NCBI GenBank assembly: GCA_030614005.1
Contig: JAUWKS010000110.1
Location: forward strand, 1 to 6,483
Direction: 5' to 3'
Length of the DNA: 6,483 nt
Source: Candidatus Heimdallarchaeota archaeon
GTDB taxonomy: Archaea > Asgardarchaeota > Heimdallarchaeia > JABLTI01
Both the position numbers and the translations under genes were made by a program. Of this stretch, positions 1-6,483 are shown in pieces. How positions within the stretch are numbered: the first letter of the stretch is position 1; each line of letters begins with the position of its first letter. A model generated the notes under the pieces. The model made no database searches and had not been told where the DNA came from. It saw only the letters and a program-made list of their open reading frames with translations.

Positions 1-783
1 ATCTATCAAGTGCACAAAACAAAGGAGTACTACCTTTCAATAATTTATGAGCAAGAAATTCCAGAGTATTACGATAATGGTATTTATCAAACAATAGACC
101 TCGGACTTATTAATATCGTTGCAGCGACGAATAGCCATGCAGGAAAATCGTTTATAATTAAAAATAAACGAGTGGACAAGTACTGGCAAATAAAAATAGA
201 GGAAATACAAAGCAAAAGAGATCATTGTAAAAAATACTCTAATCGATGGCACTGGTTAAATGATAAAATGTGGAAGATGACCAAGAAACAAGCGAACCAG
301 CAAAAAAACTTCCAACACAAAGTAAGCAAAAAGATTGTCGAGAACACCAGAGCAAACACTATAATCATCGGTGACTTGAACGTAAAAGCAATGAGTAAGA
401 GCAAGAAGAACGATAAAAAGAACGATAAGAGCAGACATAGAACCATGCAAAGCAGTGGTTCGATTGGTCGCTTCGCTGGATTCTTAACCTACAAAGCACA
501 GCGAGTAGGTAAGAAAGTAATAAGGATCAGTGAACGAAGAACAACCAAAAGATGCAGTTATTGCTTGACAAAGGAGAACAGAGCACTCTCCGAACGAACT
601 ATTAATTGTGATTGTGGACTAGTAATAGATCGAGACACAAGCAGTGCAGGAACGCAAATGCAACGCTTCCTCGCTCTGCTAGCACTATCACAGAACCGCC
701 TTATGGTCAAGCAACGACTCTTGAAAGATATTCGAGTCTTTCGAGAGAAGTTTTTTAGCGACATACAGCCAAACGTCAAATGA
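1..783 (+). CDS. tnpB: TnpB-family RNA-guided nuclease (IS200/IS605 or IS607 OrfB), 5'-truncated by window edge, rearranged RuvC-II
   Basis: Frame is open from base 1 (IYQVHKTKEYYL...). The GTG at 10 is an internal Val, as shown by alignment to copy 2. Motifs: RuvC-I TIDLG (D at 97-99), RuvC-II IIIGDL (G at 370-372), ISERRTTKRC (E at 532-534), Zn finger CSYC...CDC, RuvC-III DRD (D at 634-636). Confidence 0.95.
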   Translation: MYQVHKTKEYYLSIIYEQEIPEYYDNGIYQTIDLGLINIVAATNSHAGKSFIIKNKRVDKYWQIKIEEIQSKRDHCKKYSNRWHWLNDKMWKMTKKQANQQKNFQHKVSKKIVENTRANTIIIGDLNVKAMSKSKKNDKKNDKSRHRTMQSSGSIGRFAGFLTYKAQRVGKKVIRISERRTTKRCSYCLTKENRALSERTINCDCGLVIDRDTSSAGTQMQRFLALLALSQNRLMVKQRLLKDIRVFREKFFSDIQPNVK

Positions 784-830
784 AAGTTTCTCCCCCTCCA
801 GGGGAGTTGGGCGGACTCGCAGAGAATCAA
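1..830 (+). mobile_element. 3' portion of a tnpB-carrying IS element (IS200/IS605 superfamily-like); right end tentatively at TCAA 827-830
   Basis: tnpB 3' end is followed by GC-rich hairpin CTCCCC-ctcca-GGGGAG (790-806), GCG-gact-CGC (811-820) and TCAA (827-830), a tetranucleotide known as the right-end cleavage site of IS608-type elements. The exact end is uncertain; an alternative lies near 866. Confidence 0.6.
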
Positions 831-850
831 AAGTTAACAGAAATGCTTTA
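640..850 (+). ncRNA. Candidate omega-RNA/reRNA (TnpB guide scaffold plus flank-derived guide)
   Basis: TnpB omega-RNAs are known to overlap the tnpB 3' end and right end. Seen here: hairpin CTTGAA-agata-TTCGAG (720-736), possible long-range GAGTC(734-738)/GACTC(814-818) pairing, hairpin 790-806. Boundaries are inferred. Confidence 0.5.
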
Positions 851-885
851 AGCATCCGTTAACCAAGATAGACCATTAAAGTCTA
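833..885. repeat. Two inverted repeats downstream of tnpB
   Basis: GTTAAC-agaa-ATGCT-tta-AGCAT-cc-GTTAAC (833-863) and TAGAC-cattaaa-GTCTA (869-885). Confidence 0.6.
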
Positions 886-913
886 AGGAAATCTGTATAA
901 TAATTTGATTACT

Positions 914-3341: not shown

Positions 3342-3466
3342 TAAATAAAAAGATTCAATATTACCTTTTAATCATATTAACAAACTATCTTCATGAAAAC
3401 AGTATATCATATATAGAAAACTTCGTTAAGGAGAATGAAATTTTTTTTAAAAATTTTCAATAATTA

Positions 3467-3547
3467 TTCGCACTGACGCGTGAGGAATCGCTGTAAGCGA
3501 TGAGTAGCGGCGATGCGAGCACGCCACAAAGCGTGAGCAATTGAGTA
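3467..3547. other. GC-rich multi-hairpin island with five GAGNA motifs (REP/MITE-like or structured ncRNA candidate)
   Basis: 43/70 G+C in 3469-3538 within very AT-rich flanks. Stems 3467-3486, ATCGC/GCGAT (3487-3501), or 8-bp 3487-3494/3507-3514, and CACGC/GCGTG (3520-3535). Confidence 0.65.
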
Positions 3548-3569
3548 TTTATTTTCTAAATTCAACACA

Positions 3570-3743: not shown

Positions 3744-5195
3744 TCAAAGTAATTGTATCATTTTTTCATTTGGTCGAGTATCTATTAGACAATGGGAGCT
3801 TCGAGAATGAATGAGTAGTTTTGAATGTTCTTTGAGAATATCTAATAATGAACGATTATAGAATGTGTATATTTTCATTAGATTAGCTATTGGAATTGTT
3901 GTAATATTTAACTCATAAGTTGATAACAATGTTCTCTTTATGTTGACTTCTTTTGCCAAATCTTGTTGAGTGTGATTTTGTAAACGACGCAATTTTCGTA
4001 TTTTCTCACCGAAATTTGATAGACTGAAATATTGCACCAAAAGGAAGTTAAAATACCCAGTTGTCAATTTTTTTTGTTGAACATCTACTACTTGCCCTTT
4101 CCAAACTCCTTGTTTACGTAATGTTGTAGTTTTTCGAGCAAACCGATTAACTCTTCGACTGAGTAAGATTCCTAAATCCTGTTTTTTTTGTGGATGGTTT
4201 GTACCTATGAGTTGTGCAAACTGCTTTCTAGATTCACCTGCAATATTGAGACTAAATGTTGTTCCACCAAAAACTGATTGAGTGTAAAATCGATGTAGGA
4301 TGTTGTGTAGTGTTAAAAAGTTTGAAAAGTCTTTTAGCAGTTGTTTTGAAGCTGTACCAAAACTGATTGTTGATATATAACTCCCATCTGCATCCATCAA
4401 TCCACGCCAAAAAGCAGAGCGAAAAACAGGTTCAGACTGAATAAGAAGCGGTTCACGCAAGTGGGGATATTTTCGTTCATTGATAGGTTGTCTGGAGAGA
4501 AAATTGAAGAATCGAACAATCCATTTGCTAAGCACATTGACATTCCATGCTTGAGCATTTTTTTGAGCAAAAAATTCGATATTTGTTTGAAATATTGTTT
4601 CTAATGATTTAACGAGATTCTCAATATGCTCTTTCGAGCTATCGATTATATTAACAAAATAATTTGCTAAGTGTCCATCTCCCATAATTACTCCTGTAAG
4701 ATACGCTAGCTCTTCAGTGAGCATGAGTGGGAGTTGAAAACCTTCTCCTCGTGCAGATTGAAACTGGATGTACTGTTTTCCTTGAAAGAATGTCTCCCAG
4801 GAGGGAACCAACCGGAATAATGGAAAGGGAAGGCGCTGTTGCTCTTCGATATATGATATAATTCGCTTCTGCCAGTCTCGAATGGATTTTGAAATATTTG
4901 AGCCTAAAAAATAGTGATGTGCTTTCTCCGCATGAGCAAGTGATTGTTTTCGTATCCTTGAAACCCACTCTTGATTTAGTAGTATATAAGGGAAGGATTG
5001 GATAATGCGTTCTCCCGAAATAAAGTCTACTTTACGGAGCATAATTGGATATAATTGTAGTTGTCCTGTTTCTGTTTGGAATTTATCTCCTTGCCTTTTT
5101 TCCAGTAGCTCGTTTGCAGTTAGCCAAGTATTTTGTGCTGCTGGTGTAGGATCAAGTAGTAAAGGATCCGATTCCCAATGCAAGAAGGCAGGCAT
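3744..5195 (-). CDS. Free-standing double-motif LAGLIDADG (DOD-type) endonuclease-like protein fused to an XRE/Cro-type HTH
   Basis: Motif 1 LAYLTGVIMGDG (aa 163-174), motif 2 AFWRGLMDADG (aa 261-271), HTH FGEKIRKLRRLQNHTQQDLAKEVNIKRTLLSTYE (aa ~395-428). AGGAGA SD on the minus strand at 5202-5207. No intein splice-junction residues seen. Confidence 0.88.
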   Translation of the reverse strand: MPAFLHWESDPLLLDPTPAAQNTWLTANELLEKRQGDKFQTETGQLQLYPIMLRKVDFISGERIIQSFPYILLNQEWVSRIRKQSLAHAEKAHHYFLGSNISKSIRDWQKRIISYIEEQQRLPFPLFRLVPSWETFFQGKQYIQFQSARGEGFQLPLMLTEELAYLTGVIMGDGHLANYFVNIIDSSKEHIENLVKSLETIFQTNIEFFAQKNAQAWNVNVLSKWIVRFFNFLSRQPINERKYPHLREPLLIQSEPVFRSAFWRGLMDADGSYISTISFGTASKQLLKDFSNFLTLHNILHRFYTQSVFGGTTFSLNIAGESRKQFAQLIGTNHPQKKQDLGILLSRRVNRFARKTTTLRKQGVWKGQVVDVQQKKLTTGYFNFLLVQYFSLSNFGEKIRKLRRLQNHTQQDLAKEVNIKRTLLSTYELNITTIPIANLMKIYTFYNRSLLDILKEHSKLLIHSRSSHCLIDTRPNEKMIQLL

Positions 5196-5273
5196 CTAGT
5201 ATCTCCTGAAATAATAGTACAGTTTCTCTTTCTTAAAGACCCCTTTGTACAATCGTACAGATTACTAATTGTT

Positions 5274-5331
5274 TAGCTATTCTTTTAAGTAAGCGATTAT
5301 TACTTTCGGTAATCTCATTAGAAAATAGCTA
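5274..5331. repeat. Nested imperfect hairpin in the divergent intergenic region; candidate IS left-end structure
   Basis: Outer stem TAGCTATT(5274-5281)/AATAGCTA(5324-5331); inner ATTAC-tttcg-GTAAT (5299-5313). Confidence 0.45.
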
Positions 5332-5349
5332 TATATCTAGCTTAATATA
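5320..5349 (+). promoter_or_regulatory. Candidate archaeal BRE/TATA promoter for tnpB copy 2
   Basis: Purine-rich AGAAAATAGC, then TATATAT (5330-5336), then TTAATATA (5342-5349), upstream of ATG 5367. Confidence 0.35.
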
Positions 5350-5366
5350 TACTTTACTGAACGAAA

Positions 5367-6483
5367 ATGCTCTCAAAAGAACGGCGCCTCACAAGAAAAG
5401 CATACAAAAAACTAATAGCTGACTTGCCAAAGGACGAATTAGAGAAAGCAATGGAACAAGTACAACAAATAGCAAAACCACCAAAGAAAAAACCGCTACA
5501 ACTAGCAGCTAAAGTAAAGATCAAACCAACTCCAGAGCAAGAAGAAGTTCTCTGGGCACTAGCAGAAAATTGTCGATTAATACATTACTTTGCTAACAAA
5601 GAGCGAAAAGAATGGTGGGATAAAAACAAGCACTTGCCAAAGAAGAAAAGAGACAAAGAAACAAAACCTACCTACAACAAGCAATCAGCACAACTACCAA
5701 AGTTAAAAGCCCTTTATCCTCGTTATGAACAAAATTATTCTAAAACATTACAAGAAACACTGAAGCAATTAAAAGCTGATTATAAATCATTTTTTGCTCT
5801 AAGAAAGAATGGTTACGAGGATGCACAACCACCGAGATTCAAAGGAAAAAAATACTTTACCACCATGCATTACAATCAGAAAGGATTCAAAATCGAAGGA
5901 ACAAAAATTAACTTTACTCATTTCTATCCTTCAAAAAAAGCAAAAGACAAAGTAGACCTCACATTTGAGATGGAAGGAAAATTCACCTTTGAAGGTAAAA
6001 AAGTGAAACACGTAACCATCTTCCAAAAACACAAAACAAAAGAATTTTTCTTATCAATAATTTACGAAGAAGAAACACAAGAATATTTTGACAATGGTAT
6101 TTACCAAACAATAGACTTGGGAGTAATCAACTTGGTTGCAGCAGTGAACAGTCACGAGGGAAAAACAATAACGATAAAAAACAAACGAGTAGACAAGTAC
6201 TGGCAACCAAAAATAGAAGAGTTAACATCAAAGAGAGATCATTGCAAAAAATACTCTAATCGCTGGTACTGGTTAAACAACAAACTCAGCAAAATGATAT
6301 CAAAACAAGCGAACCAGCAAAAAGATTTCCAGCACAAAATAAGCAAGCAAGTGGTTGAAAACACCAAAGCGAATACTATCATCATTGGTGATTTAACCGT
6401 TAAGGAAATGTCGAAGAGTAAAAAAAGAGATAAAAAGAACGATAAGAGCAGACATAGAACCATGCAAAGCAGTGGTTCGATTG
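5367..6483 (+). CDS. tnpB: TnpB-family RNA-guided nuclease, copy 2, 3'-truncated by window edge
   Basis: My translation is open from ATG 5367 (alternative ATG 5451) to the window end, 372 codons. N-terminal KVKIKPTPEQEEVLWALAENCRLIHY (HTH_OrfB_IS605-like), PPRFKGK, RuvC-I TIDLG (D 6114-6116), IIIGDL (G 6387-6389). Confidence 0.95.
   Translation, partial: MLSKERRLTRKAYKKLIADLPKDELEKAMEQVQQIAKPPKKKPLQLAAKVKIKPTPEQEEVLWALAENCRLIHYFANKERKEWWDKNKHLPKKKRDKETKPTYNKQSAQLPKLKALYPRYEQNYSKTLQETLKQLKADYKSFFALRKNGYEDAQPPRFKGKKYFTTMHYNQKGFKIEGTKINFTHFYPSKKAKDKVDLTFEMEGKFTFEGKKVKHVTIFQKHKTKEFFLSIIYEEETQEYFDNGIYQTIDLGVINLVAAVNSHEGKTITIKNKRVDKYWQPKIEELTSKRDHCKKYSNRWYWLNNKLSKMISKQANQQKDFQHKISKQVVENTKANTIIIGDLTVKEMSKSKKRDKKNDKSRHRTMQSSGSI
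6018..6483 (+). repeat. Diverged direct repeat of 1-466 (offset 6017, no indels); last 55 nt identical to 412-466
   Basis: Codon-by-codon alignment gives 32 amino-acid differences in the first 137 codons, then an exact 55-nt match of 6429-6483 to 412-466. Confidence 0.95.

Follow-up and report, generated by a model that had tools for sequence, protein, structure and literature searches.

The two ends of contig C86, from a MAG of a Heimdall-group Asgard archaeon, probably represent copies of a multicopy tnpB/omega-RNA insertion sequence of about 1.9 kb that belongs to the relocated-glutamate class (TnpB2/RIIr/Ealt), with an Asp-Glu-Asp site completed by the alternative RuvC-II glutamate (Ealt) and a homing logic based on TTAT. 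The window analyzed here is this complete 6.5-kb contig; the source MAG comprises 3.6 Mb in 126 contigs and is 90% complete. The protein is likely an active omega-RNA-guided nuclease, because the Gly and Glu columns of its RuvC domain are coupled among homologues, the relocated Glu aligns with E467 of a Fanzor2, low dN/dS values indicate purifying selection, the termini have unique flanks and thus unique guides, and empty sites are found at polymorphic insertions. The first-pass annotation of this DNA had read the genes as relocated-glutamate TnpBs that are functional rather than dead, and the same lines of sequence evidence favor that reading. From these data we infer nuclease activity, the expression and 5′ end of the omega-RNA, the length of the guide, the role of TTAT as the TAM, and a transposase.

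Each end of the contig carries part of a tnpB gene, and host genes lie between the two:

1 to 783, plus strand: tnpB copy 1, 5′-truncated by the contig start; 260 codons, with the stop codon at 781 to 783
927 to 1994: M42 aminopeptidase, a host gene between the tnpB copies
5367 to 6482, plus strand: tnpB copy 2, 3′-truncated by the contig end; 372 codons, with the RuvC-I Asp at 6114 to 6116 and Gly at 6387 to 6389

The other host genes between the copies are an unknown ORF and a gene for a zinc-ribbon membrane protein; no tRNA genes were found in the window. Neither tnpB ORF contains an internal stop, and both are truncated by the contig ends and not by mutation. Because their products are 79% identical over a 155-residue overlap, the two copies are diverged paralogues and not an assembly duplicate. 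The sole full-length copy on one contig, P0001 (499 aa; C8:6403-7902), served as the reference, with key residues D250, G341, E395, C402/C405/C420/C422, and D429. Copy 1 corresponds to residues 218 to 477 of P0001 and shares 83 to 88% amino acid identity with the copies on contigs C8 and C72. The sequence of copy 2 ends at the contig edge, upstream of the position expected for its relocated Glu. The complete proteins of the window copies would resemble this C8 paralogue, to which they are 79 to 83% identical. The Pfam domains OrfB_IS605 and Cas12f1-like_TNB were detected above cut-offs in both ORFs, as was HTH_OrfB_IS605 in copy 2, giving the TnpB domain order of HTH_OrfB_IS605, OrfB_IS605 (RuvC), and zinc-ribbon/TNB; the NCBIfam model guided_TnpB scored 172 bits (cut-off, 100). 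The nearest copies of this tnpB family (75 to 83% protein identity) come exclusively from Heimdallarchaeota MAGs; the host is therefore an Asgard archaeon, a point that the first-pass annotation had left to the taxonomy of the contig. When 120 further genomes from across the phylum were sampled, 24 contained relatives with about 50% identity.

The catalytic and zinc-binding motifs are found at the following positions of copy 1:

97 to 99, plus strand: RuvC-I Asp (codon GAC) in T-I-D-L-G, which has D-L-G and not D-P-G; Asp in 83 of 86 homologues
370 to 372, plus strand: Gly (codon GGT) at the canonical RuvC-II Glu, in I-I-I-G-D-L; column with 47 Gly and 37 Glu; within strand 337-342 of the structural model
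532 to 534, plus strand: Ealt (codon GAA) in I-S-E-R-R-T-T-K-R-C, six residues ahead of the first CxxC (C-S-Y-C)
553 to 615, plus strand: zinc finger, with C-x-x-C at 553 to 564 and C-x-C at 607 to 615; four Cys invariant in an alignment of a 16-sequence clade
634 to 636, plus strand: RuvC-III Asp (codon GAC) in D-R-D; Asp in 79 of 86 homologues
637 to 657, plus strand: start of the drifted RuvC-III helix, T-S-S-A-G-T-Q in place of x-N-A-A-x-N-I; variable among Heimdall copies

[quoted passage not shown] All three acidic RuvC residues (Asp 97-99, relocated Glu 532-534, and Asp 634-636) are thus present. A nonacidic residue (Gly or Pro) at the canonical Glu and a Glu six residues ahead of CxxC are the features of a rearranged RuvC-II, and both are seen here, with Gly as the nonacidic residue. 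The E-x6-C-x-x-C spacing, seen as E-R-R-T-T-K-R-C-S-Y-C in copy 1 and as E395 to C402 in P0001, exactly matches the definition of “Ealt” by Yoon et al. (PMC10711439).

An exhaustive HMMER search of 1.84 billion representative proteins returned 3,694 hits, and the 86 full-length proteins among the best 150 of these were used as the homologue alignment. The canonical RuvC-II column contains 47 Gly and 37 Glu, the downstream column contains 44 Glu and 31 Pro, and the four-residue patterns D-G-E-D and D-E-P-D occur in 41 and 31 proteins, respectively. Rows with Gly pair with the downstream Glu and rows with the canonical Glu pair with Pro, Ala, Lys, or Ser, with zero crossover; neither the Gly-plus-Pro nor the Glu-plus-Glu combination was found among the 86 full-length homologues. 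The Gly/Glu pattern is not due to chance, because the two columns are coupled. Pro occupies the second site in 31 of the 37 canonical-Glu rows, in line with the V-x-P-x-x-T-S motif that the first-pass annotation expected there in canonical TnpBs. In a maximum-likelihood tree, a branch with 99% support separates the canonical-Glu proteins, the trait needs one change, and the Heimdall family is nested deep within a 23-row Gly/Ealt clade, also with 99% support. Judged from this tree, the rearranged site is the ancestral state in a large clade of prokaryotes. The 16-sequence clade shows no variation at D250, G341, E395, the four Cys, R428, or D429. The tnpB gene is under strong purifying selection, with dN/dS values of 0.09 to 0.16 in 27 of 28 pairs (Nei-Gojobori, 467 codons, eight full-length Heimdall copies); the exception is one near-identical pair.

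In the AlphaFold2 model of P0001 (83-sequence alignment; pLDDT, 89.7; pTM, 0.86), D250 lies in strand 246-251, G341 lies in strand 337-342, and D429 opens helix 428-447. E395 directly follows strand 389-394, with a local pLDDT of about 95, which places Ealt at the end of strand 5, adjoining strand 4, as described for the strand-5 Glu of RIIr TnpBs (PMC10691335). In a phmmer comparison with PDB sequences, E395 aligns with E467 of the mimivirus Fanzor2 (ApmFanzor2, 9b0l), and an E467A substitution in that enzyme abolished cleavage (PMC10530073). Foldseek matches included Cas12f, ISFba1 TnpB, ApmFanzor2, and ISDra2 TnpB at TM scores of 0.55 to 0.61. Topology and alignment together thus suggest a three-dimensional Asp-Glu-Asp site. 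[quoted passage not shown]

A relocated-glutamate RuvC class in large TnpB clades and Fanzors, including an active archaeal member, has been known since 2023, and the Heimdall TnpBs are ordinary members of it. Altae-Tran et al. described clades with a RuvC-II Glu-to-Gly change and a compensating Glu, several branches of which are nearly archaea specific (PMC10691335); Jiang et al. introduced the name TnpB2 for the class and demonstrated activity, and TvTnpB, an Ealt enzyme from an archaeon, acts as a TAM-dependent nuclease (PMC10530073). As in TnpB2/RIIr proteins (PMC10691335), among them TvTnpB of Thermoplasma volcanium (PMC10530073), Gly replaces the canonical RuvC-II Glu in the Heimdall proteins and a compensating Glu follows some 45 to 55 residues on, where the next strand ends, immediately ahead of the zinc finger; the archaeal host, the omega-RNA at the right end, and the mobile, multicopy nature of the element are also shared. 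However, the Heimdall proteins differ in having a drifted RuvC-III helix (no D-x-N and no N-I), a C-x-C second zinc pair, and a 44-residue helical N-terminal extension. In contrast to TvTnpB, which has an IS605 TnpA and the target NTGAC, the Heimdall copies have no IS605 TnpA nearby and a putative TTAT target. The best natural solved match to the clade profile is ISDra2 TnpB (PDB 8exa and 8h1j; 114.7 bits), which has the same domain order and an omega-RNA overlapping the 3′ end; its element, too, integrates on the 3′ side of a short T-rich target and makes no long duplication. Unlike the Heimdall TnpB, ISDra2 TnpB has the canonical strand-4 Glu, an intact D-R-D-x-N-A-A-x-N-I, and a Y1 TnpA partner.

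The first-pass annotation had also suggested that, in an Asgard host, these genes could matter for the origin of Fanzors, and this part of it was not upheld. The Asgard host and the Glu position shared with Fanzors would fit Asgard TnpBs as the archaeal sister or source of eukaryotic Fanzors, as would ApmFanzor2 having the highest sequence identity (20%) of the top structural matches; ApmFanzor2 (Acanthamoeba polyphaga mimivirus; PDB 9b0l; PMC11832414) also has Gly at the canonical site, a Glu (E467) at the aligned position, and the same overall fold (TM, 0.59). However, in Fanzors and in the bacterial proteins proposed as their progenitors, Ealt is accompanied by D-P-G at RuvC-I, and pro-Fanzors have been found in cyanobacteria only (PMC10711439), whereas every Heimdall copy, including the two in the window, has D-L-G at RuvC-I. 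Fanzor2 further differs in its IS607-type context and eukaryotic-virus host; the host here is a Heimdallarchaeota MAG, and no serine recombinase was found in the source genome. With PDB scores as a proxy for phylogeny, the profile of the 16-sequence clade scored 114.7 bits against ISDra2 TnpB versus 78.3 bits against Fanzor2, with no Fanzor1 hit among PDB sequences, and NCBIfam gave 99 bits for IS200_TnpB versus 55.7 bits for IS607_TnpB. Since the Ealt state is, in addition, common to a large prokaryotic clade, a sister or source relationship to Fanzors appears highly improbable. Nothing in these sequences points to the Heimdall TnpB as a pro-Fanzor or to a special Asgard-Fanzor link.

The RuvC-III helix was not remarked upon in the first-pass annotation. 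In nearly all homologues, the RuvC-III Asp is followed by x-N-A-A-x-N-I, and its two Asn residues are present in 70 and 73 of the 86 proteins. Asp and the following residues read D-T-S-S-A-G-T-Q in this lineage versus the near-invariant D-x-N-A-A-x-N-I. Among the Heimdall copies, this segment grades from I-N-A-A-V-N-I through V-S-G-T-V-N-I to T-S-S-A-G-T-Q, with Asp always kept. A frameshift was considered as the origin of the odd helix and rejected; because the other two frames contain no N-A-A-x-N-I-like sequence and the relatives are graded, the change represents real drift. The drifted helix could weaken or alter catalysis, and its drift together with the loss of Asn is the best argument for such an effect; the C-x-C in place of C-x-x-C at the second zinc-finger pair also counts against a functional reading.

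Loss of both conserved Asn residues and helix drift among copies would suit a TldR-like RNA-guided binder or regulator that binds guide and target without cutting and keeps the Glu solely for folding or metal binding. Consistent with the same role are Gly at the canonical RuvC-II position, the frequent pairing of the gene with a DNA-binding LAGLIDADG-HTH gene, and the fact that no TnpA was found to create excised empty sites needing cutting. We nevertheless consider a noncutting binder unlikely. TnpBs described in the literature as dead or exapted have lost catalytic residues and are immobile genes in single copy (PMC10691335), whereas none of the three acidic residues or the zinc-finger Cys varies in this clade, and the genome contains 16 copies, each of which takes its guide from a unique flank, with presence or absence varying between congeners. 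Activity has been seen in the Ealt enzymes assayed so far (PMC10530073).

The favored reading of a mobile, guided nuclease is also based on the structure of the element ends, which are as follows in the window:

678 to 876, plus strand: predicted omega-RNA scaffold, overlapping the tnpB 3′ end; right end (RE) at 876 (...GTTAACCAAGATAGACCAT)
877 to 896, plus strand: guide-encoding flank of copy 1, of presumed length; host DNA 50 nt upstream of the M42 peptidase start
5223 to 5366, plus strand: upstream region of copy 2, common to tnpB-only copies; 5′ UTR/promoter side of the left end

The right end is sharp at 876 and is followed by full divergence in the 16 copies of the source genome; six copies in other Heimdall MAGs share the same right-end motif, and all 22 terminate in ...GATAGACCAT before diverging. 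Within the last 200 nt or so of the element, there are invariant blocks as well as two hairpins that show compensatory substitutions. Past residue 467 or so, the protein tail differs by frameshift among copies, as would be expected if this region is constrained at the RNA level. No Rfam family matched in the window at E values of up to 1, and with indels counted, the omega-RNA segment was no more conserved at the DNA level than the coding body (77 to 81% versus 78 to 84%), so that support for the omega-RNA comes from the sharp boundary, the invariant blocks, and a few compensatory pairs. The scaffold would be encoded by the 3′ end of tnpB plus the 93 nt behind the gene, and transcription beyond the right end would add a guide copied from the flanking DNA.

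Thirteen left ends start with GATATCATTTCGTTAAC..., and their flanks end in TTAT (10), GTAT (2), or TTAC (1). As candidate left ends of a larger LAGLIDADG/helicase-containing element, a left-end-like site was also observed at C29:23398 (TTAT and then GAGTTCATTTCGTTAACC), together with a weak one at positions 3404 to 3432 of the window. For copy 1, the empty site is present in two genomes of the same genus (G001 and G010), where ...AAAAGTTAT is directly followed by TAAAGTCTAAGGAA..., corresponding to the window from 877 onward. The left flank of the C97 left end runs straight into the right flank of the C99 right end in G010, with an empty site of ...GGTTAT and then GGATAAC..., and because these flanks are contiguous, C97 and C99 represent one insertion. 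A third empty site, for C108, reads ...GTTAT and then AACTTTC. In the three empty sites, found in two congeners, (G)TTAT thus stands directly 5′ of the right-flank sequence, and since this places the element 3′ of TTAT, the right flank (from 877 on) can be read as the guide.

Only the dinucleotide AT is shared by both junctions, with no longer duplication, which fits IS200/IS605-type insertion 3′ of a short target or a serine-recombinase crossover at AT. The junctions do not fit insertion by a Cas1-type integrase, an enzyme that produces long duplications. The TTAT motif is likely the TAM of the element. As the element sits 3′ of TTAT, its empty site would consist of this motif followed by the exact guide sequence, the arrangement on which TnpB-mediated homing depends. 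The RNP could then cut the empty site, and the element would be restored by homology-directed repair.

In the source genome, 16 right and 13 left termini were counted, and their flanks are unique. The 16 right-end segments of this genome, compared with 0 to 3 in each of ten congeners, represent a copy-number burst (16 versus at most 3). Many of the copies may be old, because they differ by 10 to 20% in DNA sequence (78 to 91% identical); some left ends are 95 to 100% identical to each other. BLAST of the window ends against the genome showed that many contigs terminate within the element, and this contig likewise breaks inside it, as near-identical repeats would give. No Y1 TnpA (PF01797) scored over the cut-off in the 11 genomes of the genus, and a serine recombinase (PF00239) was found in 1 of the 11 and not in the source genome (MAGs 64 to 92% complete); thus, among MAGs of this completeness, the genus lacks a detectable association of tnpB with either type of TnpA. 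Many TnpBs are nonautonomous.

The divergence among copies, the frameshifted C-terminal tails, a premature stop in the neighboring LAGLIDADG gene, and the lack of a detected transposase raise the question of whether the window copies are decaying relics of an extinct element that merely inherited the motif pattern. This seems very unlikely given the absence of internal stops in the window ORFs, which are cut by the contig ends, the dN/dS of about 0.1, the mutual identity of some left ends (95 to 100%), and the excess of copies over those in congeners; the contig breaks within the element are also as near-identical repeats predict.

A gene adjacent to copy 2 suggests a connection of the insertion sequence to a larger unit:

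3744 to 5195, minus strand: LAGLIDADG plus Xre-type HTH gene, divergent from copy 2; recurrent upstream partner of this tnpB family

In the window, a premature TGA shortens its product to 483 aa, versus 541 aa in paralogues. The LAGLIDADG-HTH gene lies divergently upstream of members of the tnpB family on C86, C8, C15, and C48 of the source genome, upstream at 6 of 9 loci in Heimdall MAGs, and beside a 59%-identical metagenomic relative. On C8, C48, C63, and C29, it is followed by a gene for a 1367-aa protein and then by one for a DEAD-MZB-phosphoesterase helicase. The 1367-aa protein has no detectable domains, and Pfam, NCBIfam, and PDB sequence searches returned no match to Cas1. Most tnpB copies in the source genome are tnpB-only, and at their left end, a terminal module of about 95 nt is joined exactly at the LAGLIDADG start codon, as if the short elements had arisen from the larger unit by deletion.

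Cargo genes resembling WhiA/meganucleases and two Asgard-linked aCas1-TnpB groups were described by Altae-Tran et al. (PMC10691335). Like the aCas1-associated Asgard TnpB loci (Cas1H-Asgard-1/-2; PMC10691335), the Heimdall element has an Asgard host and a right end that closes in a conserved T (…CCAT), and the paralogous loci on C8, C48, and C29, with the tnpB family beside LAGLIDADG-HTH, the 1367-aa protein, and the DEAD-MZB-phosphoesterase helicase, can be likened to them. In contrast to those loci, the published downstream GTTCACTCA motif is absent from the 22 Heimdall right flanks, 21 of which contain no GTTCACT-like motif within 70 nt, and most source-genome copies are tnpB-only. No Cas1-like gene is present in the window; in the paralogous loci, the 1367-aa protein, which gave no Cas1 match by sequence, is encoded two genes away. 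A fuller scenario, in which the tnpB-only copies derive by deletion from a larger Heimdall element (helicase, 1367-aa protein, LAGLIDADG-HTH, and tnpB) and are moved in trans by an enzyme of neither the Y1 nor the serine type, inserting 3′ of TTAT with only AT shared at the junctions, is offered tentatively, and we would not expect it to hold in full.

Overall, the Heimdall TnpB adds a member to a known class and no new principle. As a worked Heimdall example, it comes with exact element ends, a defined guide, TTAT as the probable TAM, three sites that are empty in congeners, and a burst in copy number, and it thereby makes an Asgard OMEGA system directly testable at the bench. It also removes a tempting link from Asgard archaea to Fanzors, given the D-L-G at RuvC-I and a sequence nearer to ISDra2-type TnpB. 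Two questions may merit further work, namely, by what means the element moves in a genus in which canonical TnpA is almost never found and whether the drifted RuvC-III helix alters catalysis. If the scenario of a larger element is true, the drifted helix could reflect an altered cutting mode, and movement in trans would be a new route of OMEGA-element mobilization in the closest archaeal relatives of eukaryotes.

The tnpB family has a recurrent divergent partner, a LAGLIDADG-HTH gene at a spacing of approximately 170 bp, and this pairing holds even for a relative with 59% identity. The window's copy of the partner and the other features considered here are as follows.

2120-2617, (+) strand: a 165-aa open reading frame rich in Trp, Tyr, and His, between an M42 peptidase gene and a gene for a zinc-ribbon membrane protein
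3456-3550: a GC-rich element of ~90 nt in AT-rich surroundings, immediately 3' of the LAGLIDADG gene
3744-5195, (-) strand: a LAGLIDADG and Xre-HTH gene with the acidic motifs M-G-D-G and M-D-A-D-G
5637-5657: the basic patch P-K-K-K-R-D-K, residues 91 to 97 of TnpB copy 2

Both acidic motifs of the LAGLIDADG-HTH gene are intact. A premature TGA shortens its product to 483 aa, versus 541 aa in the paralogues, of which the genome has 13. Comparison with the PDB gave only weak matches, to a homing endonuclease (2dch), the VMA intein, and controller and Xre proteins. On contig C63, the position beside the LAGLIDADG gene that this tnpB usually occupies instead holds a TnpB of 532 aa together with a tRNA-like sequence. 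Further, distant TnpB families (24 to 45% identity) coexist in this genome, on C63 (L036; C63:33684-35282), C37, C7, C78, and C9. The 165-aa open reading frame had no match in Pfam.

In the region 3404-3440, the homology that the window shares with the LAGLIDADG loci on contigs C48 and C63 ends near 3440, and just outside this limit lies a weak look-alike of the tnpB element's left terminus, GTAT followed by ATCAT...TTCGTTAAGG. Together, these two features suggest that the LAGLIDADG gene and copy 2 may be an ~5-kb deletion derivative of the larger, ~12-kb element. A candidate for the far left terminus of that element is found at C29:23398, where a left-end-like sequence, GAGTTCATTTCGTTAACCAA, is flanked by TTAT approximately 1 kb past the helicase gene in one copy of the large element, with a methyltransferase-like fragment in between. 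The GC-rich element is 95 to 96% identical on C48, C63, and C9, despite identities of just 57 to 83% for the adjoining proteins; the C8 version is a variant whose stems differ. The GC-rich element has a predicted fold of approximately -27 kcal/mol and no match in Rfam. Within the larger element, it may function as a structured RNA or as a site for protein binding.

Among Heimdall copies of TnpB (L022 to L030), the helix after the RuvC-III Asp (window 637-657) is a hot spot of variation, while strong purifying selection acts elsewhere in the protein. The basic patch of copy 2, which resembles a classical nuclear localization signal, sits in a confidently modelled loop of the REC part, is conserved across the Heimdall family, and is probably a nucleic acid contact.

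Within the genus, no Y1 TnpA was found, and a serine recombinase was found in only one genome (G005). The right-end segment (probe, window 760-876) occurs 16 times in this genome versus 0 to 3 times in ten same-genus genomes, an excess that is a lineage-specific burst.
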